Below are positions 5,897-55,285 of a stretch of 64,000 nucleotides of DNA, piece by piece (position 1 is the stretch's first letter; each line of letters begins with the position of its first letter). The stretch is from an uncultured Pseudomonas sp. (lineage in GTDB: Bacteria; Pseudomonadota; Gammaproteobacteria; Pseudomonadales; Pseudomonadaceae). A program made the translations under genes and the position numbers. Below the pieces are notes generated by a model that worked only from the letters and a program-made list of their open reading frames with translations, was not told the DNA's origin and searched no databases. The stretch lies in NCBI GenBank assembly GCA_966210885.1, contig CBIHLQ010000004.1, positions 13,620-77,619 on the forward strand. Reading direction: 5' to 3'.

Positions 5897-5930
5897 CTCT
5901 CTCCTTGGTTGGCCCAGCCAGCCTTTTCCC

Positions 5931-5963
5931 AGCCACGGTAACGCTCGTTACCGTGGTTTTTTT
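5931..5963 (+). terminator. Rho-independent terminator of mexEF-oprN
   Basis: CCACGGTAAC-GCTC-GTTACCGTGG perfect 10 bp stem followed by 7 T. Confidence 0.9.
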
Positions 5964-6120
5964 CATGTCCCCATTACGTGTTGCATGGGCGACGGCTGGG
6001 TTAGCCGAAGATGTACCCCAGCGACCTCAAGCATCTCAGCCATGTTGAATTCCAATGCTGTTCGTGAGTGATGCTCAACCACTTCCCTCCGGATTCCATA
6101 CGGATCTACCAAAGCTATTC

Positions 6121-6197
6121 AGGGTGGATCGGGGCGCGTAGATGATACTTTTTTCATCCACCATCGCGGCCGGTGGATGAGCGTCATCCGCCCTACG
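6121..6197. repeat. Degenerate REP/REPIN doublet
   Basis: AGGGTGGAT...TTTTTCATCCACC...GGTGGATGAGCGTCATCCGCCCTAC; nested inverted repeats ending in CTAC, left GTAG head missing. Confidence 0.65.
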
Positions 6198-6279
6198 AGG
6201 TCAGGCCTTGCGGATATACATAGGATCTACAACGGCGGCCATACCACGTTCGCGTAGACATTGGTCGGAACGTATTCAG

Positions 6280-8946
6280 TCACTGCGCGATGTGCGAATC
6301 AGGTGCTATAACTTTTGCCTTATTCGGTACCACCAGCAGATCCATACCTGAGATAAAGGTGCCGTCGCCTGACACCGTTATCATCCGAGTCCCCGTATCG
6401 GTCAGCCCAAGGCGCTGTAGTTGCTCGGGTGAGACCCGTAGTAGGTAATCGCCGGCGACTACTCCGGGGATGATATAGAAGCCATCCCAGCTACTGGTTA
6501 TCTGGCCAACGATCTCCATCCGCTCGTCCAACAGCTCCAGTTGCATATCGCCGATGCCCCGCTTGTTCTCATGCTCGAACAGATAGACAGTGCCATCGAT
6601 TTCAGTGGTCATGCGCACTGGAAAATCCAGTTCGGCCACTCGACCAGGACGAGGCACCAGGCTATGGCCGGCGACCTCGGGTGCCCATTGCGGATCGCTC
6701 AGGGTGCTGGTATCCACGCCTATATCGACACGCTGCTTGATCGGCAGTTGCCTCATATGGGCGATGCCCTGCGCGTCTGTGCGGACTTGCCGCCTGCCAC
6801 CGTTAATGGTGAACCCTGCCCCCTCCAGCGGATCCTCGCCGGGATCCATCACCCCGTTATTGTTGTTGTCCAGAAACATGCGTACGGAGGCGGCACCGGT
6901 ATTTGCCATAGGCTGTGCATCGAGCAGCCAGTCGGCCTTGCGTGGATCTCGGCCCAGGGAGAGAAAGAACTGCATACCGACTGCGATATCGCCGCTGTCC
7001 AGGTAGCTGGCGTTGACCCCCAGGCCGAATCGCCCCAGGCTTTTGGTGAAGCCGGCGGTATAACGTGTTTCGGGCGACTGAAAGCTGTGCGCAATACCCA
7101 GGGTCAGCCGATAACCCTCCGCCAGGTACTTGTCCGCCGTTAGGGCCACGCTGGCGAGTTCCGCCTGGGGGGCCAGGTTGTAGCTCAGTTGGCCACGAAA
7201 ACTCATATCGCGTATGCGTTGGCTGAGCTGCAAATTGCCGAAAGCGAACTCGTCGCCATTGATGGAATGCCAGTTGAGGGTATTGCTCAGCGCCGTGCGA
7301 TAGGCATACCCGGAGATGCGGGTGCTGACATCGTTATCGATTCGGCCGGATTCGTGCTCATCGCGAGTCGCCTGAAAGGTGATCGGTATCCGTGAGCGAG
7401 CGCCCACCGGAATGGAGCCGCTCAACCGTAGCTCATCACGGCTCTTGATGGGATCGTTGTAGAAGAGGAAGTAGTCGCTTTTGAAGTCGTAGAGAAACAA
7501 ACGACTGGCATCTATCGAAACGCCGCCGAGACGAGTCTGCAAGCCGAGTTCCGTTAGCGAGCCACCCTCTTGATCTCTGATCAGATCGGTGTTCAGACTC
7601 AAAGATTGCCAGAAAGTCCTCAGCCCGATATTGGAATACTGATGTTCGACACCATCCACGGGCGCTCTGATCAAGCCACCTGTGGCAGAGAGCGTTCGGG
7701 ACAATCCCATATCGAACTGGGCGATTGAGCGCGTCAGACCATCCTCGTCGCGATGCTCGATCAGGTTGTACTGGAGTTCGCCCGGCAACACCATGGACTC
7801 GGCGAGGGAGTAGCTATATTGCTCGACCTGGGTTTGCCCCAGGGGACCATGGAAAACCAATTGAAAGTCGTTGCGGCCATAGCTCAGGGGCTGGTCCTCA
7901 AAGCGATAGCGGCCCTCGGCATTGGGTTGCTGGAAGCCCACCAGTGCGCCGTTGTAGAAGAGTTCCACATCCCACCCCGGCGGCAGGTCGCCCTCAAAAG
8001 TCTGGCGGTCGAACTGCGTGGGCCGGGTCAGTGGCCGATTGCTCAGGGTGATCCCCTCGCCGGCTCTGCCCTGGGTAATGTTATCCACGCTCGGAGTGGA
8101 AAGACTGCCGAATTGGAAGGATCGCGCCTGCAGGGGGCCCAGCAGGCCGCCATCCGGATCGTGCCGCCCAAAGGTCGCGCGTATTTCTTGTGACTCACCT
8201 GCTGTATCGCCATTGAGATAAAGGGTGGACTCCATGCCCAGCAGATCGCCCGTCAAGAGTGCGGTGTAACGGCTATCGGTATGGGTGCCGGTATCGTCGC
8301 GGCGGGCTTCCGTCGCGAATGTCTGATCGATGAAGGGGGTGCTCAACATCTGATAAGGCATGTCGTGACGTGGATAGCCGGGATCCTCGTAGGCGCCATG
8401 CCTCCCGGCCCGCTCACCGACGCGTGCGCGCCGCAAGCGGGCCTGTAACGGTAAAGGTTCGAGCGGATAGACCTGCAATGTCAGCCTCGGTCGGTCGACC
8501 TCCAGCTCTATCGGTAGCCAGCGCTCGATCAACGATACCGCGACGTACAGATCGTCTGGCTCCGCCTGCACCAGCGCGGGATCGAAGGCTTCCGTTTCAC
8601 CGGCCAGGGTAATGCGAGCCTCTTTCAGGTTCAGGCTGAATCCGCGGTCCTCGCTCAGGACGAAACCGCTGGCGGTACCCTGCCCGGGCTGGGTCTGCAC
8701 CGCGATCGTGAGCAGGCGCGCCAGCTCGCCCAGAGGCAACAAGGTGTGTTCACCCATGTCAAAGGCAGGAATGGCGTCGGACAGCACCGATTGATCCAGA
8801 CGCACCTCGAGCAGCAGGCTCGGCTCAGAAGACTCAAGCCCAGGTTCCTGGGCGGCCAGGATACCGGCATGGCCCAGCAGCCCCGGCAATAACGCCAGCC
8901 GGACGAACCTACCCACCGCCCTCTGACAGGCTGCTAAAAATTTCAT
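6280..8946 (-). CDS. Atypical fimbrial usher-like outer membrane protein with C-terminal SdrD-B/carboxypeptidase-regulatory-like domains, 888 aa
   Basis: Signal peptide; usher plug-like segment EGDLPPGWDVELFYNGALVG...YRFEDQPLSYGRNDFQLVFHGPLGQ; amphipathic beta-strand core; C-terminal FLDNNNNGVMDPGE motif; lies downstream of a chaperone and pilins. Confidence 0.8.
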   Translation of the reverse strand: MKFLAACQRAVGRFVRLALLPGLLGHAGILAAQEPGLESSEPSLLLEVRLDQSVLSDAIPAFDMGEHTLLPLGELARLLTIAVQTQPGQGTASGFVLSEDRGFSLNLKEARITLAGETEAFDPALVQAEPDDLYVAVSLIERWLPIELEVDRPRLTLQVYPLEPLPLQARLRRARVGERAGRHGAYEDPGYPRHDMPYQMLSTPFIDQTFATEARRDDTGTHTDSRYTALLTGDLLGMESTLYLNGDTAGESQEIRATFGRHDPDGGLLGPLQARSFQFGSLSTPSVDNITQGRAGEGITLSNRPLTRPTQFDRQTFEGDLPPGWDVELFYNGALVGFQQPNAEGRYRFEDQPLSYGRNDFQLVFHGPLGQTQVEQYSYSLAESMVLPGELQYNLIEHRDEDGLTRSIAQFDMGLSRTLSATGGLIRAPVDGVEHQYSNIGLRTFWQSLSLNTDLIRDQEGGSLTELGLQTRLGGVSIDASRLFLYDFKSDYFLFYNDPIKSRDELRLSGSIPVGARSRIPITFQATRDEHESGRIDNDVSTRISGYAYRTALSNTLNWHSINGDEFAFGNLQLSQRIRDMSFRGQLSYNLAPQAELASVALTADKYLAEGYRLTLGIAHSFQSPETRYTAGFTKSLGRFGLGVNASYLDSGDIAVGMQFFLSLGRDPRKADWLLDAQPMANTGAASVRMFLDNNNNGVMDPGEDPLEGAGFTINGGRRQVRTDAQGIAHMRQLPIKQRVDIGVDTSTLSDPQWAPEVAGHSLVPRPGRVAELDFPVRMTTEIDGTVYLFEHENKRGIGDMQLELLDERMEIVGQITSSWDGFYIIPGVVAGDYLLRVSPEQLQRLGLTDTGTRMITVSGDGTFISGMDLLVVPNKAKVIAPDSHIAQ

Positions 8947-8960
8947 GGCAGACGTGCTGA

Positions 8961-9878
8961 TCAGGGCAGCTGAAGAACCGCCTCGGCCAGCAGGTCGCCG
9001 CCGTCCTCCGCCTGTTCCCGGTAAGTGATCCGCAGCACCCCATTGGCCAATTGCAGGCCGCCTGGAGGATCGAGCCTCAGCTTGGCGCGCCGCAGCGGAT
9101 TAGGGGTATAGACGGCCACGCCATTGGCACGACCGATGATCTGTTCGGCGCCCCCCTTGGGGGTGAAACTGGCAGCCAGATCGCCGTAAACGGACTGATT
9201 GCCGCTGCGCTCCATCTGCAAGGCCAGCAGTGATTGCCCGCGAGGCAGGTGCTGAAGCTCGAGCTGGGTCAAGGCCACGTCGGCATCGGTATTGCCATGG
9301 CGAACAATGACTGGGATGGAGATGCCGAGCAACGTATTCAGGACGATCCCGATGCCTTTGTCATTGCGGGTTTCGATGCTGGATCTGCCTTTGGCTTCCG
9401 GCAACTGGGTAAACAGCAAGTGCGAACGGTATTCTCCTGCCGCAAGATCGCCGGGTTTGCGCACCATGATGCGGACAGTCTGCCCCGCCCCCGGAGCAAG
9501 CGTCACCTGTCTCGGGGAATAGCGCAGCATGCTGTCGGAAAACTGCTCGCCTGGCTGTGGGGTCTCGATGTCTGAAAAGGCTCCGGTTTCGTCCATGCGC
9601 CGATTAACCAGGCTGATTCGATAAGTCGCGCTTTGGCTACCATTGTTGATCAATTCAAGCTGGGCTGCCCGCTGGTTGCCCTTGAAGACTATGCGGGTTG
9701 GATAAAGCATCAGCTCCGCCAGCGCTTCGCTCATACAGAACAGCATGAGCACACCGCATACAACTGCAGTTAAACGCCGGGGAAACCGGCTCGTGGCCAA
9801 AGTCCAGGAACAGGATGATTGAATCATGGCTCCGGCTGTTCCGGTGCGGATAGCTCTAGTCGAAGTGGTAACGCTCAT
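8961..9878 (-). CDS. Periplasmic pilus chaperone (PapD-N/EcpB-like)
   Basis: LMLYPTRIVF, YSPRQVTLAPGAGQTVRI and GEYRSHL motifs; ATG at 9878 has an AAGGA RBS 8 nt upstream (alternative start 9827). Confidence 0.85.
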   Translation of the reverse strand: MSVTTSTRAIRTGTAGAMIQSSCSWTLATSRFPRRLTAVVCGVLMLFCMSEALAELMLYPTRIVFKGNQRAAQLELINNGSQSATYRISLVNRRMDETGAFSDIETPQPGEQFSDSMLRYSPRQVTLAPGAGQTVRIMVRKPGDLAAGEYRSHLLFTQLPEAKGRSSIETRNDKGIGIVLNTLLGISIPVIVRHGNTDADVALTQLELQHLPRGQSLLALQMERSGNQSVYGDLAASFTPKGGAEQIIGRANGVAVYTPNPLRRAKLRLDPPGGLQLANGVLRITYREQAEDGGDLLAEAVLQLP

Positions 9879-9994
9879 TTTCCAATTCCTTCTAATTCCA
9901 CTTGTTCCCTGCGATCTGCGCAGGAAATGTGGATCCTTATTGAGCGGCATCTTTTTGCCGTTTCGACGAGGGTCGCCTGTGAATCTCGCTTGGC

Positions 9995-10459
9995 TCAGTT
10001 GTAGTTGACGATAACCATGAAACTGCCCGAATACTGGCCGGCAGTCTGACCGCTGCCCACCTGGAGAGCGGCACCCACCGACAAGGTCTGGGAGCCGCCC
10101 GCACTCAATTGGCCGCCTGCTTCCGACGGCGTGCTGGTGAAATCGTTGATAATCATGTCGGCGCCCGGCCCAGTCAGCTTTACAAAGTCGTTGGCTGGCA
10201 ACTCTATGGTATAGGTGGCATTGGGGTCGCCGGTGACCGTGAACTTGGCGGCCTGGCCTGCACTCGAAGGGATCAGCATCACGTCCCCGCTGGCACTGCG
10301 CATATCGTTGGTATCGACCGCCACGGTACCACCAACGCCAGCTACGAAGCTGCCGAAGGCCAAGGACTGGGTATTCTGGATGGCGATTTCCGCGCGGACA
10401 CTGGGAGCCATGAGGACGGCCAGTAGACTAACCGCGGCGATCGGCAGGTAATGCTTCAT
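9995..10459 (-). CDS. DUF4402-like pilin subunit 3 (candidate tip/minor subunit)
   Basis: Signal peptide MKHYL...VRA, LAFGSF, VGAALQVGSGQTAGQYSGSFMVIVNYN; start has a GAGAGAG RBS. Confidence 0.85.
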   Translation of the reverse strand: MKHYLPIAAVSLLAVLMAPSVRAEIAIQNTQSLAFGSFVAGVGGTVAVDTNDMRSASGDVMLIPSSAGQAAKFTVTGDPNATYTIELPANDFVKLTGPGADMIINDFTSTPSEAGGQLSAGGSQTLSVGAALQVGSGQTAGQYSGSFMVIVNYN

Positions 10460-10506
10460 TGGCTCTCTCTCGGGTGGGTGATTCCAGAGTACTGCAGGGC
10501 CCGATA

Positions 10507-10935
10507 TCAATTGTAGGTTATGGTGATACTGATATCGCTTATGCCGGAGGGACTGTCGCCAGTAGCTTTCAGAATGATACCGCTTACCGGATCACCATCA
10601 AGCAGCCCTTCCTGATCCACCAGCCTGAGGCAATCGCCCCGACCAGCACAACCTGTATCTACTTTCTCCTGCAGTTGGGCAATGATTAAGCGAAAACGAT
10701 CTTCATCCGTTCCGGCCATGAATTCGCTGGGAAGACGAATTATCAGATCCCCCGTGAGGCCGCTGACAAACACGGCCGTACCTTGCGGCATAAGCGTTTC
10801 GTTGATTTTGACCGGAGCGACTATCCTGGCGCTAGCCATCGCCGCTGCCCGGTTTGCACAGGTACTGCCGCTGACCCCGGCCATGCTCGAGGCCAGCGCA
10901 AATACAAGGGCGAAGCTGCCGAAACCCAACCTCAT
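10507..10935 (-). CDS. Short divergent DUF4402-like pilin subunit 2
   Basis: Signal peptide, ASARIVAP segment homologous to TSATVVVP of pilin 1, C-terminal ISITITYN, two Cys. Confidence 0.65.
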   Translation of the reverse strand: MRLGFGSFALVFALASSMAGVSGSTCANRAAAMASARIVAPVKINETLMPQGTAVFVSGLTGDLIIRLPSEFMAGTDEDRFRLIIAQLQEKVDTGCAGRGDCLRLVDQEGLLDGDPVSGIILKATGDSPSGISDISITITYN

Positions 10936-10991
10936 AGTTCCGCCCCCTTTCCGCTGGGCCAGCGGCCTCCTTGCCCCGCACCGGAGAACTG

Positions 10992-11531
10992 TTAGTTATA
11001 GTTCACTTCTGCCGTGATGGTGCCAGAGTAAACTCCTGTTGTTTGAGCATTCCCCACAGTCAGAGTCCCACCGACATAGAGTGTCTGTGTACCACCGGTG
11101 AGCGTGCCGCTCGCCGGACTATTCTCTGTAGCGCCATCGAGGTCGTGGACGGTCGCAAGGGCCATAGTCGTGACGGTATCCGTATGAGTCAGATTGTCGT
11201 CCGTGACGCTGATGCTGAAGCTGGCGTCGGCTTGGCCGGTAACCGTGAACTGCGCAGCGGCAGCAGTGCCCCCCGTCAGTACAACATCGCCGGTCGGGCT
11301 AGCCGCACCGCCAGTAGTCAATACGACGGTGCCGCCCGTGCCCGCAGCGAATTCGCCGAAAGAAAGATCCTGGGCCTGTGCAATCGCGATGGGCACAACG
11401 ACCGTAGCGCTGGTAGTGGCGGTGTCGCTTACTGCAGCAGCAAAACTGTTGGAAGCGCCAAAAGCCCCCAACGCGGCGACCGAAGCCACCGCGGCAAGAC
11501 GGAAGTTCTTGCTAGAAAGAATAGATTTCAT
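10992..11531 (-). CDS. DUF4402-like major pilin candidate, 179 aa
   Basis: Signal peptide, Ala/Thr/Gly-rich, DLSFG motif, YVGGTLTVGNAQTTGVYSGTITAEVNYN end; first gene of the operon. Confidence 0.88.
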   Translation of the reverse strand: MKSILSSKNFRLAAVASVAALGAFGASNSFAAAVSDTATTSATVVVPIAIAQAQDLSFGEFAAGTGGTVVLTTGGAASPTGDVVLTGGTAAAAQFTVTGQADASFSISVTDDNLTHTDTVTTMALATVHDLDGATENSPASGTLTGGTQTLYVGGTLTVGNAQTTGVYSGTITAEVNYN

Positions 11532-11590
11532 AGGTAAATCCCCTTGTTAAGCCATGTCGCAGACGTGCTTGCCGTCAACAGCAGCTTGAA

Positions 11591-11653
11591 CTGAAACACC
11601 AATCACAGGGGATCCGAAAACGGGCCAATGAGGGGGCCGAAAACAGACCAATG
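11591..11653. repeat. Three imperfect direct repeats in the pilin 5' leader
   Basis: GAAACACCAATC / GAAAACGGGCCAATG / GAAAACAGACCAATG; the last two also share a GGGG(A/G)..CC prefix, about 23 nt period. Confidence 0.6.
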
Positions 11654-11697
11654 TAGCCTGAGCACCGAGAAAGCGGCTCGAAAAAACTACATTGAAT

Positions 11698-11786
11698 GTC
11701 GACGGTCCCGCTGTCATGAGGCTTTAGGGCCCTTTAGACCGGTGACTTTGCGTCTCCGCCTTTCGACGGGTTTGCCTTTATCGCAC
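11698..11786 (-). ncRNA. c-di-GMP-I (GEMM-I) riboswitch aptamer upstream of the pilin operon
   Basis: Minus strand reads GUGCGAUAAAGGCAAACCCGUCGAAAGGCGGAGACGCAAAGUCACCGGUCUAAAGGGCCCUAAAGCCUCAUGACAGCGGGACCGUCGAC. It has GGCAAAC, a P2 stem with GAAA tetraloop, GACGCAAAG, a UCUAA..AUGA tetraloop receptor and P1 GU(g)CGAU/GUCGAC. Confidence 0.9.
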
Positions 11787-11839
11787 CTTAAGGATAGTCA
11801 ACTCGGATGAATGCGCAATTTGGGCGTCGCTTGCAAAGC

Positions 11840-12137
11840 GTAGTCTAATTTCGCTAGACGCCTCTGCCGCTGGAAAAGCCACCGGAAGAGATGTCATGTA
11901 TGAGCCGTAAATGCAGAGTGTCCAACGCCAACTTCAAGCCGCAAGTCGTGCAGATGGTGAAGGAGAAAAGCCTGATTGTGCCTCGGAGTTGATAGGTGAG
12001 ACGGCGGTTCGCCGTTGGTTTCAGCAGTACAACGCCAAGCTACCCGGATAGTCCGGAATCAGTAAGCCGCGAACCTTCAAGCAACAACGAATCCGCTAGT
12101 TCGAAGCTGTCAGCTCAAGCAGTAAAACGACCTGTTA
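11840..12137 (+). pseudogene. Decayed IS3-family element end with transposase OrfA remnant
   Basis: From ATG 11900, across stops and frameshifts: MSRKCRVSNANFKPQVVQMVKEKSL..GETAVRRWFQQYNA..SGISKPRTFKQQRIR*FEA..QLKQ*NDLL, which matches the IS3 OrfA HTH plus leucine-zipper pattern; IR-like GTAGTCTAATTTCGCTAGACGCC at about 11840. Confidence 0.75.
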
Positions 12138-12462
12138 GGCTATTGGCGTCACTATCAGGGCAATTTGCTCGGCTGATCCGATTGCTCGTCGAGATCGCCG
12201 CCGAAGGAGTCATCGGCGCCCTCCGCCCCGTAGCGGCATAGGCCGGGTCGACATCATAGGCGCCACCCGGCACCTGCGCGCCCTTCTCAAACGCCTCGCG
12301 ATTGCGCTCGATCGCCTGTCTCACCGCCTGAGGGGCGTCCTTCGCCACCTTGCCTTTGGTTGCGTCGCCGTTCGTCTTGTCCTTCGCGGAATCGCCTTGC
12401 GGCGGATTGCCGGGAATCTGGCATTGCTCGCTGTTTTTCGGGGTATCGGGTTGCCGACTCAT
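12115..12462 (-). CDS. Hypothetical hydrophilic low-complexity protein, 115 aa
   Basis: GGAG RBS before ATG 12462; no recognisable domain; 3' end overlaps the IS remnant. Confidence 0.4.
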   Translation of the reverse strand: MSRQPDTPKNSEQCQIPGNPPQGDSAKDKTNGDATKGKVAKDAPQAVRQAIERNREAFEKGAQVPGGAYDVDPAYAATGRRAPMTPSAAISTSNRISRANCPDSDANSLTGRFTA

Positions 12463-12679
12463 GATTCGAACTCCAATCGATGTGCGCACCCGGTAGAGAA
12501 AAACGCAGGTAAAAGTGCGCATCCCGGGATCGGCGGTTATGCCTTTCAGCGTCGCCCGAACGGCTGCCGTAGATCGACTGGAACGCCCGTGCTTGAGCCG
12601 CTTCACCGCTTCCGTGAACTATCTCGAATGTCGGTGCTCACATGGGTTATGTGCACTCAGCAATGGTCTACGCCGCCCT

Positions 12680-13105
12680 ATGGACAGCCAAGAGAGCAGC
12701 CGGATAGCCGCTCCGCTGGCGCGCTGTCTCGGAGAGCATGCGGATGCCATGCAGATCGCCGATGCGATTGTTGTCGTGTGGAGTGAAATTGATAGCGCCC
12801 TGGCGCCGATTATCGGGCACGGGGGGGTGATTGCGCTGTGCAAGCGCAGCCTTTATCTCGCCGCCCAGCGACACGCCTGCCTGACTGACGCTTATGCAAG
12901 CATCCAGTCAGGGGGCGAGTTCACCGATTTTAAGCCAGTTATCGCGCAACAGACCGGCATCACTGTCTCCGTCGGCGATGAGGTTTTCCAACAGTTCAAT
13001 GGGTTGCTTGTGTCGTTGATCGGCAGCTCTCTCACCGAGCGATTGCTGCGCTCCGTGTGGGAAAACTCGTTGGCCGCGCCGCCCGCGCAGGAGCATTTGC
13101 CATGA
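12680..13105 (+). CDS. Small alpha-helical protein coupled to the KaiC-like ATPase, 141 aa
   Basis: MDSQESSRIAAPL start; stop overlaps the ATPase start (ATGA at 13102-13105). Confidence 0.7.
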   Translation: MDSQESSRIAAPLARCLGEHADAMQIADAIVVVWSEIDSALAPIIGHGGVIALCKRSLYLAAQRHACLTDAYASIQSGGEFTDFKPVIAQQTGITVSVGDEVFQQFNGLLVSLIGSSLTERLLRSVWENSLAAPPAQEHLP

Positions 13106-14562
13106 AAAAAGTAGCCATCAACTGTTTGTCTACTGGCATTGCGGGCCTGGATCGAGTCCTGGCCGGTGGGTTGCCGGAGCTTTCCTTCAATGTGATCGCC
13201 GGCGCCCCCGGCTGCGGTAAGACCACGCTGTCGCATCAACTCATGTTCGAAATGGTCAAGCACAATGCCCCAGCGCTGTATTTCACGGGATTGGGCGAGC
13301 CTCCGTTGAAAATGCTGCGTCACCAGCAGCAGTTCGATTTCTTCGACGACGAGAAGATCGGCCAGTCGATCCACTTTATCAACCTGACGGAGGATATCTT
13401 CGGCGGCGACCTCAAGTTGATGCTGCAGCGGATCGTCGACGAGGTACTAAGCCATCAACCCAAGCTGGTATTCGTCGACTCCTTCCGCGCTGCGGTGCAC
13501 TCCAACGAGGTGGAGCAACAGCCGAACAGCGATCTGCAGCAATTTATGCAGCAGCTCGGGCTATTGTTGACCAGTTGGCAGATCACCTCGTTCCTGATCG
13601 GCGAATACTTTTCCGAGGTCGGCAACAACCCAGTGTTCACGGTGGCCGATGGCTTGATCTGGCTACATAAGGACGTGCATCGCAACTCCTTGGTGCGCAA
13701 GTTGGAAGTCATGAAAATGCGCGGTCAGCCAGTCCTGCCGGGGCTACATACCTACCGACTCAGCTTGCATAAAGGCATCGAAGTATTCGCACCCTCCGAT
13801 AGCCTGGCGCTGCCTGAGTGCATCCGTCCCTCGGAGACTTCCCGCCTGGGGATGGGGGTGGAGCATCTGGACGAGATGCTCGGGGGCGGTTTGCCGAGTG
13901 GTTATGCGCTGTTGGTGGTAGGCCCTTCGGGGTCTGGCAAGTCGACTCTGGCCATGGCGTTCTTGGCCGAAGGCGTACGCAACGGCGAGACCGCGGTGAT
14001 TGCCAATTTCGATAAAAATCCCTATCTGTCGTGCAACCCAGCACTCGTCAATTTGTTGAACAGTGGACAGATCGGCGTGCTGTACAGCCTCGCCCCCGAT
14101 CTGTCGATCGATGAGATTGCGCTCAAGTTGGTCGACGAAATCCGCCGACTCAAGGCGACCCGCGTGGTGATCGATTCGCTATCGGGCCTCGAACTCTCCC
14201 TGGCCCCGACCTCCCGCGCGGACTTCCGCGAATCGCTGGCTCGCCTGACCAGGACCCTGTCCAACACCGGTGTCAGCGTGCTGTTGATCTCCGAACTCGA
14301 GGATAGCTATACCGAGTTGCGCTTAAGCCCTCACGACACCGCGTTCCTCGCCGACGCAATCATCATGCAGCGCTATATCGAAGTCGACAGCAGGCTGCTG
14401 CGGGTGATGGCGGTGGTCAAGGTTCGGGGCAGCAAGCACTCCAATCAACTGCGTCAATTCACTATCGACGACGAGGGTATTCACCTGGGCGAACCCTTGA
14501 TAAATCAGGAAGGGTTGCTGGGTGGCCAGCCAACGGCAAATACCGGTAACGATTCGGCCTGA
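13102..14562 (+). CDS. KaiC-like double-domain RecA-superfamily ATPase, 486 aa
   Basis: Two Walker A motifs (GAPGCGKT, GPSGSGKS), Walker B motifs (VFVDS, VVIDS), KMRG and KVRG arginine fingers; GGAG RBS. Confidence 0.92.
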   Translation: MKKVAINCLSTGIAGLDRVLAGGLPELSFNVIAGAPGCGKTTLSHQLMFEMVKHNAPALYFTGLGEPPLKMLRHQQQFDFFDDEKIGQSIHFINLTEDIFGGDLKLMLQRIVDEVLSHQPKLVFVDSFRAAVHSNEVEQQPNSDLQQFMQQLGLLLTSWQITSFLIGEYFSEVGNNPVFTVADGLIWLHKDVHRNSLVRKLEVMKMRGQPVLPGLHTYRLSLHKGIEVFAPSDSLALPECIRPSETSRLGMGVEHLDEMLGGGLPSGYALLVVGPSGSGKSTLAMAFLAEGVRNGETAVIANFDKNPYLSCNPALVNLLNSGQIGVLYSLAPDLSIDEIALKLVDEIRRLKATRVVIDSLSGLELSLAPTSRADFRESLARLTRTLSNTGVSVLLISELEDSYTELRLSPHDTAFLADAIIMQRYIEVDSRLLRVMAVVKVRGSKHSNQLRQFTIDDEGIHLGEPLINQEGLLGGQPTANTGNDSA

Positions 14563-14591
14563 CGGGCGAGCGCCCTGGGGAGGCTTGTACT

Positions 14592-16181
14592 TTGAACAAA
14601 AAACGGGGCCGCGGCCCGGATACGGCCAAAGCTCGACCTGAATCGACGCCCGATCAACCGATCGAGTCGGTGTCGCAAAAGAAGTTGGACGAACTGAAGA
14701 AGCGTCTGGACGATAGCCATCCGTCGCCACTGGTGGAAGCCAACGAGCAGTTGGTGTTCGCCATGTTGCGCACCCAGATCAAGGCCGAGCAAGCCGAGCG
14801 CAAACTCCAGGAGGCTTTGCGCCTGGTCGAGCTGGACGCATTGACGGGCCTGCCGAACCGCGTGCTGTTTTTCGACCGTTTCACCCGTGCGATCGCCAAT
14901 GCCAAGCGGCATAACCAGCGTTTGGCGCTGTTGTTCCTCGACCTCAACAACTTCAAGCAAATCAACGACACCCTCGGCCATAGCGTGGGCGACGAGGTGC
15001 TCAAGCATGCGGCAAGGTGCTTCGTCTCCTCGGTGCGCGAGGCCGATACCGTCAGTCGTCTGGGCGGCGATGAGTTTTTGATCCTGCTCACGGAAGTTAC
15101 CCAGCCCGCCGATGCGACCTTGATCGCCAGAAAAGTCACGGCGGCGCTCGGCACGCCGAACCGTATCGGCGAGCACCTGTTGCGCCTGACCACCAGCATC
15201 GGCATCAGCATCTATCCCGACGATGGCGATACGCCCGACGAACTCGTCGAGCGCGCCGATGCCGCCATGTACCGGGCCAAGCGGCACGGGCTGGGCGGCT
15301 TCGTGTTTCACGGCGAGGCCAACGACAGCGAGCCGCTCGACCCGCCCGTCAGCTCGCTCAAGCGTCTGGTTACCCACTATGAGTTGTTACAGGCCGAGCA
15401 TGATCGGCACAGCTGCGACTTGTTGGAAGCCAACGAACAGTTGGTCCTGGCCGCCCTGACCGCACAGGCCCTGCAAGCCGAGGCGGAACAGGCGGAGCGC
15501 CGGCAAAAGGACGCCCTGACTCTGCTCACGCATGAAGTGCGCACGGCCTTGACGCCGATCCGCATGGTCGCGGAATTGTTAAGTCGCCCTAGCCAGCACG
15601 TGCCACTGCGCTTGCAACAGGTTTTCGAACGCAAGGTAAGCCATCTGTACCGCGTGCTGGACGACCTGCTGCATATCTCGCGCGCTAGCGTCGCCAAGTT
15701 GAAGCTCGAGCGGCAAACGGTCGATTTGAACCATATCGTCGAATCGGTGGTGCAAACCTGGCGGCCGGAGATGGACAGTCGAACACAGCGTTTTGAACTG
15801 CGGATGCCGCAACAGGCACTGTTGTTGGAAGGCGACCCGATGAGGCTGGAACAGATTTTCGACAACCTGCTCGGCAACGCCTGCCAATACACCCCGGCGG
15901 GCGGACAGATCGCGCTGACCGCGAAGTGCGAAGGCGATACCGTCGTCATCACGATCAACGACAGTGGCGTCGGCATCGATACCGAACTGTTGCCGAACAT
16001 CTTCGAGCCGTTCGTGCAGACGCCCGGCGCCATCGACTTCGACAGCGGCGGTTTGGGCATCGGGCTCACGGTGGTGCGCGAACTGGTCCTGGCCCACGGC
16101 GGCGAGGTCGCCGCCAGCAGTGCTGGCCCCGGTCTCGGTAGCCAGTTCGTGGTCAAACTGCCTCTGCTCGGGCAATCTTAA
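14592..16181 (+). CDS. GGDEF diguanylate cyclase - HisKA - HATPase_c fusion protein, 529 aa
   Basis: DALTGLPNR, DLNNFKQINDTLGHSVGD, READ I-site plus RLGGDEF; THEVRT H-box, NLLGNA N-box, DSGVGI, IFEPF, GLGIGL. Start codon (TTG) uncertain. Confidence 0.88.
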   Translation: MNKKRGRGPDTAKARPESTPDQPIESVSQKKLDELKKRLDDSHPSPLVEANEQLVFAMLRTQIKAEQAERKLQEALRLVELDALTGLPNRVLFFDRFTRAIANAKRHNQRLALLFLDLNNFKQINDTLGHSVGDEVLKHAARCFVSSVREADTVSRLGGDEFLILLTEVTQPADATLIARKVTAALGTPNRIGEHLLRLTTSIGISIYPDDGDTPDELVERADAAMYRAKRHGLGGFVFHGEANDSEPLDPPVSSLKRLVTHYELLQAEHDRHSCDLLEANEQLVLAALTAQALQAEAEQAERRQKDALTLLTHEVRTALTPIRMVAELLSRPSQHVPLRLQQVFERKVSHLYRVLDDLLHISRASVAKLKLERQTVDLNHIVESVVQTWRPEMDSRTQRFELRMPQQALLLEGDPMRLEQIFDNLLGNACQYTPAGGQIALTAKCEGDTVVITINDSGVGIDTELLPNIFEPFVQTPGAIDFDSGGLGIGLTVVRELVLAHGGEVAASSAGPGLGSQFVVKLPLLGQS

Positions 16182-55155: not shown

Positions 55156-55216
55156 GCGCACCGCAGCGGCCAATACACTTGCCAAGTACGCCCGCAGCAC
55201 CTATTGCTTAATAAGC

Positions 55217-55285
55217 GTGACGCCGGGCCCCTCTGGCGGTGAGCCCTCACCGTGATGTCGGAGTCACTGAGTTGATTCTCAACTT
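55217..55285 (+). ncRNA. Candidate structured leader RNA (possible terC RNA motif)
   Basis: GTGAC...GTCAC outer stem enclosing a CGGTGA-GCCC-TCACCG hairpin, then AGTTGA-TTC-TCAACT, just upstream of the TerC RBS. Confidence 0.5.

Follow-up and report, generated by a model that had tools for sequence, protein, structure and literature searches.

GEMM-type riboswitches are typically found in a surface-fibre context, and pilus genes are among the classic associates of GEMM-I. The prototype of the c-di-GMP-I (GEMM-I) family, RF01051, is Vc2 of Vibrio cholerae, which lies upstream of tfoY and is reported to be an OFF switch (bioRxiv 10.1101/617340). In the Vc2 structure, G83 is bulged in P3 and pairs with C44, C92 lies in J3/1, G14 pairs with C93 at the P1 apex, and A95 bulges out (PMC3764141). 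Two relatives of the family serve for comparison here: the GEMM-Ib 3',3'-cGAMP riboswitches of Geobacter, which have the same fold and differ by a single ligand-contact substitution (A20, with C92 kept), and the c-di-GMP-I-GGC variant (RF03167), which belongs to the same clan and whose model consensus reads GACGCGAA, with G47.

A class I c-di-GMP aptamer and its operon

We analysed a stretch of 64,000 nucleotides from an uncultured Pseudomonas sp., hereafter called the window. A cmscan search of the whole 64-kb window against Rfam 15 gave two matches above threshold, one of which was to RF01051 at 11786..11698 on the minus strand (73.1 bits, E 1.9e-12); the match was untruncated and covered model positions 1–87 of 87. 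The original prediction, made from the letters alone, had placed a full GEMM-I aptamer on the minus strand, and the covariance-model search bore this out with a significant score above the gathering score of 35 bits. The 73.1 bits were obtained over the full model and at exactly the predicted coordinates, and chance is excluded as an explanation. The window also holds a terC RNA motif (RF03067; 58.1 bits, threshold 39.9) at 55215-55270 on the plus strand. According to a scan of the whole assembly, GEMM-I occurs once in the 5.66-Mb genome.

The junction and P2 of the aptamer read AAAG-GC-AAAC and CCCGUC-GAAA-GGCGGA, the basal position of P2 being a C-A mismatch, and the sequence further carries GACGCAAAG and a P3 receptor of the form UCUAA...AUGA. 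The GNRA tetraloop (GAAA) and the P3 tetraloop receptor, both of which the c-di-GMP-I class requires, are thus found together, and the loop, receptor, GCAAAC, GACGCAAAG and mismatch had all been read correctly in advance. The interhelical pair is kept (C44 at 11752, G83 at 11711), as are the ligand contacts G20 (11776) and A47 (11749) in the Rfam alignment, and C93 corresponds to 11701. In addition, the pairs of P2 and P3 covary among related aptamers. We conclude that the RNA is a genuine class I c-di-GMP riboswitch aptamer, that is, a known kind of RNA. It would be a functional c-di-GMP riboswitch, for which ligand binding is predicted.

With Vc2 the window RNA has in common the three-helix aptamer, the GAAA tetraloop with its receptor, the bases G20 and A47, and the pairs C44-G83 and G14-C93 (the P1 apex); it is also predicted to belong, as Vc2 does, to the 5' leader of a gammaproteobacterial surface or motility gene. 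It differs in having U at position 92 and two mismatches, C-A at the P2 base and A-C at the P3 end, in an expression platform of ~166 nt built for predicted sequestration of the Shine–Dalgarno sequence (SD), and in the genes downstream, which encode DUF4402 pilins and not a regulator. Membership in the GGC variant was rejected: the window did not reach the RF03167 threshold, and the defining G47 is absent, A47 being present in its place (GACGCAAA). Three related aptamers (L030, L064 and L096) score slightly better on RF03167 than on RF01051, and we regard these scores as cross-matches because the hallmark G47 is again replaced by A47.

Five genes follow the aptamer on the same strand. The ATG of the first begins at 11531, leaving a gap of 166 nt, practically the ~167 nt given in the original prediction. 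This gene (10992..11531) encodes pilin 1, a 179-aa DUF4402 protein with a signal peptide (PF14352, E 3.7e-26), for which 249 homologues were found. It is followed by a 142-aa secreted protein taken from the open reading frame list (10507..10935), which gave no Pfam or NCBIfam match and whose homologues occupy the equivalent place in the operons of 7 related loci, and by a second DUF4402 subunit with a signal peptide (9995..10510; PF14352, E 6.8e-29). The fourth gene (8961..9950) encodes a PapD-like periplasmic chaperone, a component of chaperone-usher systems (PapD_N, 25.5 bits against a cut-off of 23, E 1.4e-5), and its product is 66-89% identical to the chaperones of related loci. The last gene (6280..8946) encodes an 888-aa protein that is called an outer-membrane usher-like protein by its size and operon position only; no Pfam match to Usher domains was obtained even at E up to 10, nor any NCBIfam or PDB sequence match, and the protein gave only sub-threshold Ig-like matches at its C-terminus.

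A promoter-like site (11791..11818, minus strand), made up of a -35 hexamer TTGCGC (11818-11813), a 16-nt spacer and a -10 hexamer TATCCT (11796-11791), ends 4 nt upstream of the aptamer. It scored 7 of 12 consensus matches in a custom scan, and no promoter was called by a consensus tool at a stricter threshold. A -10-like hexamer ends 4-12 nt before the aptamer in about half of the related loci, the best related promoter being TTGACA-16-TATACT (L024). Because the window hexamers end so close to 11786 and -10-like hexamers recur in relatives, the RNA probably begins at the P1 strand of the aptamer, with transcription predicted to start at ~11786-11783, at the 5' edge of the aptamer. Direct control at the RNA level is then the natural reading, given the position of the promoter-like site and an operon on the same strand. 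Six Halomonas/Vreelandella loci (L019, L021-L023, L028 and L064) carry instead of an obvious sigma-70 promoter adjoining the aptamer a conserved block ~70 nt upstream of it, CUCACYGAARGRUGAUA...CGACAG...UGUCGGAA.

The U at position 92 and the expected ligand

Vc2 numbering was anchored on G83 (the G of the unpaired AG), C93 and A95, the conserved CC being C92 and C93. Under this anchoring, taken from the Vc2 structure (PMC3764141), the Rfam consensus tail gCCgaa aligns to GUCGAC of the window, so that position 92 is U (11702). The original prediction had listed G20, A47 and C92 as present; the first two hold, and the third does not. The Watson–Crick pair that C92 forms with the second guanine of the ligand is thus not found in the window aptamer. 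We still count the RNA as a c-di-GMP-I member, because the rest of the model is fully matched and Vc2 with C92U retains reduced binding; by its sequence it is a natural C92U variant of the family. U92 is also found in L016, an uncultured Pseudomonas MAG with 94% pilin identity, and in Marinobacter sp. X15-166B (L025), all others in the module set having C92 (21 of 24). We conclude that U92 in the Marinobacter strain arose separately.

C92U in Vc2 is reported to cut strongly the in vivo response, and cyclase overexpression partly rescues it, because the affinity of the single mutant exceeds that of the double mutant (bioRxiv 10.1101/617340). In the G20A/C92U double mutant, binding shifts towards c-di-AMP (PMC7288161). 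In the window aptamer, U92 most likely lowers the affinity for c-di-GMP: it would probably form a G-U wobble with the second guanine of the ligand, so that a higher c-di-GMP concentration would be needed.

As for the identity of the ligand, the genome encodes 44 GGDEF domains, all 44 of which carry the canonical Asp where cGAMP-making Hypr enzymes have Ser, and neither a SMODS cyclase in the genome nor a Hypr-type GGDEF among these 44 domains was found. Since G20 is retained and both kinds of enzyme are missing, c-di-GMP stays the expected ligand, which fits the original statement that G20 selects c-di-GMP over cGAMP; on the same grounds, cGAMP was considered and judged unlikely. Unlike the GEMM-Ib riboswitches of Geobacter, the window RNA keeps G20, is changed at position 92 and has no evident cGAMP synthase in its genome.

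The close relative L016 allowed the conservation of the RNA to be assessed. Between the two loci, the aptamer differs at 1 of 89 nt and the promoter region at 4 of 114 positions, compared with 12.8% of pilin third codon positions, and both the sole aptamer change and the changes in HP1, the hairpin that follows the aptamer, keep pairing as G-U. As the aptamer is more conserved than neutral sites and its pairs are preserved, the RNA appears to be maintained by selection, U92 and the C-A mismatch included, and we conclude that the aptamer is under purifying selection.

These data bear on an alternative in which the aptamer is impaired or re-tuned, being either a relic with constitutive expression or repression, or a sensor that prefers, for example, 3',3'-cGAMP, with its G recognised by G20 and its A by U92. 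The U at the C92 position combined with the P2 mismatch points in this direction, as do the sharply lowered in vivo function reported for C92U Vc2 (bioRxiv 10.1101/617340) and the shift of the double mutant towards c-di-AMP (PMC7288161). The window score is low, at 73 bits against 69-85 for 18 module-clade aptamers, and a duplicated element in the leader (see below) could make the leader insensitive to ligand. However, the aptamer beats neutral sites in conservation and shares U92 and the mismatch with L016, U92 occurs independently in Marinobacter X15-166B with all else intact, and the C-A mismatch is also found in M. denitrificans. Furthermore, C92U Vc2 still responds under cyclase overexpression, according to the same preprint, and the enzymes that would make cGAMP are missing from a genome with 44 canonical GGDEF domains. 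We consider an impaired or re-tuned aptamer very unlikely.

Leader architecture and two possible pairings of a C-rich element

The leader between the aptamer and pilin 1 (all coordinates on the minus strand) opens with HP1, a two-tier hairpin directly after the aptamer (11648..11695) with an outer stem CAAUGUAG/CUACAUUG and an inner stem GAGC.CG/CGG.GCUC; its local fold has an energy of -23.8 kcal/mol (z = -3.0). Hairpins at this position in relatives have the same shape and unrelated stem sequences, the inner stems being GAGCCG/CGGUGCUC in the window, GGGUACGG/CCGUACUC in P. tumuqii, GGAUGCGG/CCGUAUCC in Marinobacter and GGCACGA/UCGUGCU in one metagenome locus. Further downstream lies a C-rich switching (anti-SD) element, GUUUUCGGAUCCCCUGUGAUUGGU (11598..11621), with its core CGGAUCCCCUGUG at 11616-11604, a site also given as CGGAUCCCCUG. 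It is preceded by an extra copy, GUUUUCGGCCCCCUCAUUGGCCC (11622..11644), that stems from a lineage-specific tandem duplication: the direct repeat 11609-11630/11632-11653 has a 23-nt spacing and 82% identity and is seen only in the window and L016. A second hairpin, HP3 (11546..11591), separates the switching element from the SD and is enclosed by the anti-SD:SD helix; the SD AGGGGAUU (11544-11537) and the pilin 1 ATG (11531-11529), together 11529..11544, were read from the sequence. The same plan, consisting of HP1, an element GUU..CGG-(A/U)UCC(C/U)C..-GGU, HP3, a G-rich SD and the ATG, is shared by 22 leaders from at least six genera. An element of the type GUU..CGG..YCCC..GGU is present in 22/22 related leaders, and HP3-position hairpins, whose inner stems differ, occur in 21/22 relatives with z down to -5.3.

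A hairpin directly after the aptamer raises the possibility of mainly transcriptional control, in which HP1 with a U-rich tract, or Rho acting on the untranslated leader, would stop transcription in a ligand-dependent manner. HP1 is indeed followed by GGUCUGUUUUCGG in the window and by UGUUUUGUUUUCGG in Marinobacter, and Rho-dependent polarity often accompanies translational repression in Gammaproteobacteria. However, no U-tract is found in P. tumuqii and Halomonas (GUGUUAUCGG and GUGUUAACGG), the tract of the window lies 4 nt off the stem, and a consensus terminator scan called no intrinsic terminator in the leader on the minus strand. Moreover, HP1 and the aptamer do not overlap in such a way that HP1 formation would depend on ligand. 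Transcriptional control as the main mechanism is, in our judgement, highly improbable, whereas control of translation, in whichever direction, is likely.

Complementarity between the switching element and the SD is observed across the related leaders: the element is the best partner of the SD region within the leader in 18 of 23 cases. In the window, the duplex of CGGAUCCCCUGUG with the SD AACAAGGGGAUUUA amounts to -14.6 kcal/mol, and the SD has an unpaired probability of 0.14-0.16 in folding ensembles. Matched changes on the two sides are seen in L024 (CAGGAG with CUCCUG) and in Kineobactrum (ACCGGA with UCCGGU). When elements were swapped among leaders, own SD-element pairs were only marginally better than swapped ones (-11.35 compared with -10.62 kcal/mol, permutation p = 0.06).

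The same element is also complementary to the aptamer. It keeps 6-7 bp with GGGACCG, the 3' strand of aptamer P3, in 22/22 leaders, and its stretch CGGAUCCCC is the part that faces both the SD and GGGACCG. The flanking sequences GACAU and GUGUU lengthen the helix between aptamer strand and element, with HP1 as its cap. Kineobactrum represents a co-varying lineage, with GGGAUUGCC as the aptamer strand and GGAAAUCC as the element. In two Burkholderiales leaders of unrelated sequence (L031 and L055), a stretch able to pair with the SD shares bases with the sequence that best partners the aptamer 3' strand; these cases are less clean, in that a second stretch of L031 pairs with the SD about equally and the aptamer duplex of L055 is weak. 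The aptamer-strand/element duplex was no stronger than in shuffled leaders (z about 0), and permutation across sequences gave p = 0.20, as the aptamer strand hardly varies. This second helix is suggested by a complementarity that persists across the leaders, by the one lineage that co-varies and by the two Burkholderiales leaders, which are partly analogous.

Folding calculations placed the closed-aptamer fold and the fold with the alternative helix forced within about 4 kcal/mol of each other. On going to the alternative fold, the SD became more exposed in 12 of 19 leaders and less so in 2; in ensemble calculations, the SD was mostly paired in both states, with a mean unpaired probability of 0.29 vs 0.25. 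The global minimum-energy fold of the window leader (-88 kcal/mol) matches neither model state. A pairing between the HP1 loop and the SD, obtained with RNAalifold on a MAFFT alignment, was rejected, as the region is poorly aligned and the loop is not complementary in Marinobacter.

We propose that the GEMM-I riboswitch, whose predicted place is at the 5' end of the mRNA or close to it, would control translation initiation of pilin 1 by means of these two pairings. In one state, the C-rich element would pair with the SD (AGGGGAU), enclose HP3 and hide the ribosome-binding site; in the other, it would pair with GGGACCG, and GACAU with GUGUU, giving a long HP1-capped stem with the SD free. Binding of c-di-GMP would lock GGGACCG in the aptamer, the element would fall on the SD and expression of the operon would go down. 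With a single element pairing both the SD and the aptamer strand, ligand binding is expected to lower translation, and we lean slightly towards an OFF switch. In the window lineage, the duplicated element could keep the SD covered in both states.

c-di-GMP generally favours adhesins and pili, and its repressing a pilus contradicts the usual expectation that it promotes adhesion. The same parts may work with the opposite sign, c-di-GMP turning translation ON by way of an unrecognised fourth element or a tertiary contact, which is the direction anticipated for an adhesive organelle. ON-type GEMM-I switches do exist, for example Vc1 before gbpA (PMC4744006), and in most leaders the predicted default is a sequestered SD, as is usual for an ON switch at rest. 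In addition, the tail of the aptamer can pair with strands of HP3 (CCGUCGACA with UGUUGACGG in the window; -22.7 kcal/mol in L016), and through this pairing the formation of P1 might be linked to the opening of the anti-SD:SD/HP3 stem. This tail-HP3 pairing, however, is not conserved in Halomonas, whereas the SD-covering element itself partners the aptamer strand in 22/22 leaders, a logic that gives OFF. The overlapping dual complementarity in the two independent Burkholderiales leaders, though less clean, argues in the same direction. We regard an ON switch as unlikely and retain the OFF switch as the working model.

Distribution and origin of the riboswitch-DUF4402 module

An alignment of pilin homologues was searched against one genome per species, which yielded 80 loci. 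Among the 40 of these scanned with Rfam, 17 have GEMM-I directly upstream of a DUF4402 pilin, in Pseudomonas (2), Cellvibrio, Halomonas (7), Marinobacter (4), Vreelandella, a Burkholderiales MAG and Massilia glaciei; it was also found upstream in 8/8 further loci with the closest pilins, from metagenomes and Kineobactrum salinum. A survey of GEMM elements before DUF4402 genes, suggested in the original prediction, thus finds the pairing repeatedly, and not confined to this genome. The modules of Halomonas, Marinobacter, Vreelandella, Cellvibrio, Kineobactrum and P. tumuqii resemble that of the window in gene order, aptamer subtype and leader plan (HP1, a CGGAUCC element, HP3 and SD), with chaperones that are 66-74% identical. 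They differ in that most have C92, that the 23-nt duplication is limited to the window and L016, and that the upstream neighbours are others.

Within the genus, GEMM-I was detected in 11 of 401 species genomes, and before DUF4402 only in the window genome and in P. tumuqii LAMW06; in the family, 32 of 401 genomes carry it, and these belong to 5 of 21 genera. From these counts, sensing of c-di-GMP by RNA is uncommon, not exceptional, in Pseudomonadaceae, and absent from model strains. The original view of a pilus under direct control of an RNA sensor, unusual for the family, accordingly keeps its core, namely a real GEMM-I in the predicted leader of a same-strand operon with DUF4402 and PapD-like genes, and is narrowed in that 'unusual' here means uncommon. 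By its occurrence, the riboswitch-DUF4402 pairing is a widespread conserved gammaproteobacterial module that is rare in pseudomonads, and not an invention of this one.

Other GEMM-I contexts came to light in the same survey. In one genus of the family with genomes of 6-7.6 Mb (L107-L126), all 19 matched genomes have a single GEMM-I of 74-80 bits, ~100-125 nt upstream of the gene for an uncharacterised 207-aa protein (MNQPYQ.QYTYGFARMALRDQVVFKSIVGLL...) that gave no Pfam match; in at least one locus (L124), a P-loop gene comes next. In the genus of the window, L003 and L005 have GEMM-I before a gene for a 160-aa secreted Oxidored_molyb-like (molybdopterin-oxidoreductase-like) protein and a sensor gene, and L004 and L006-L015 have a shorter aptamer type without the GAAA loop, before a secreted protein of >470 aa and in up to three copies per genome.

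GC content is 0.55-0.60 over window positions 5900-15000, which cover the pilus operon and a KaiC-like gene, the flanks having 0.62-0.69. In 24/24 relatives of the same genus the usher-like gene is missing, whereas another family of the same order has a 46% homologue. Similarity between the window and L016 ends at about 11900, with unrelated sequence beyond. Given the low GC, the absence of the usher-like gene elsewhere in the genus and this abrupt end, acquisition of the whole module by horizontal transfer is the simplest reading: riboswitch and operon would travel as one module, which was probably acquired horizontally by this Pseudomonas lineage. A plasmid origin was rejected, a megablast of the operon against PLSDB giving no match.

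A 196-aa open reading frame, a KaiC-like ATPase and a GGDEF-histidine-kinase fusion (window 12515-16181) adjoin the riboswitch divergently. This set accompanies the module in none of the 80 related loci, the closest included, and a dedicated circuit of KaiC-like protein, GGDEF-kinase and riboswitch was rejected on this ground. A divergent GGDEF gene upstream of the module was seen only in L020, L039 and L055. Between the riboswitch promoter and the divergent genes lies a 163-aa open reading frame (12115-12606, minus strand) that matched no family and that L016 does not preserve; it probably does not represent a gene.

Taken as a whole, an explanation by a translational OFF riboswitch before a five-gene DUF4402 operon, with a U92 wobble and horizontal acquisition of the module, seems to us moderately probable. 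Counting against it are the weakened response reported for Vc2 with C92U (bioRxiv 10.1101/617340) and the additional C-A mismatch in P2 of the window aptamer. A bolder version would extend it to the DUF4402 fibres in general, as a widespread gammaproteobacterial regulon repressed by c-di-GMP through a translational OFF riboswitch, in which the G20/A47/U92 form of this Pseudomonas lineage and one Marinobacter would be a selected sensor of low affinity or altered specificity and the duplicated element here would re-set the threshold. We think this distinctly unlikely; if true, DUF4402 fibres would be organelles of the low-c-di-GMP (motile or exploratory) state and not biofilm adhesins.

In the literature searched, no paper found mentions DUF4402, no link between spore-coat-U-like pilins and c-di-GMP riboswitches was found, and a search for Halomonas together with c-di-GMP-I riboswitches returned nothing on a riboswitch-DUF4402 module; no description was found there of the tight GEMM-I/DUF4402 module or of its conserved translational platform. 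What is known of the riboswitch class itself is unchanged by the finding. Its linkage to GEMM-I would give the uncharacterised DUF4402 family a first regulatory context, and the leader would represent a compact platform for translational control whose host organisms have high-GC genomes. How ligand affinity is tuned in vivo could be studied with the natural C92U variants. For the pseudomonads, our analysis suggests that some of them would read c-di-GMP directly by RNA, apparently by importing a ready-made riboswitch-operon module.
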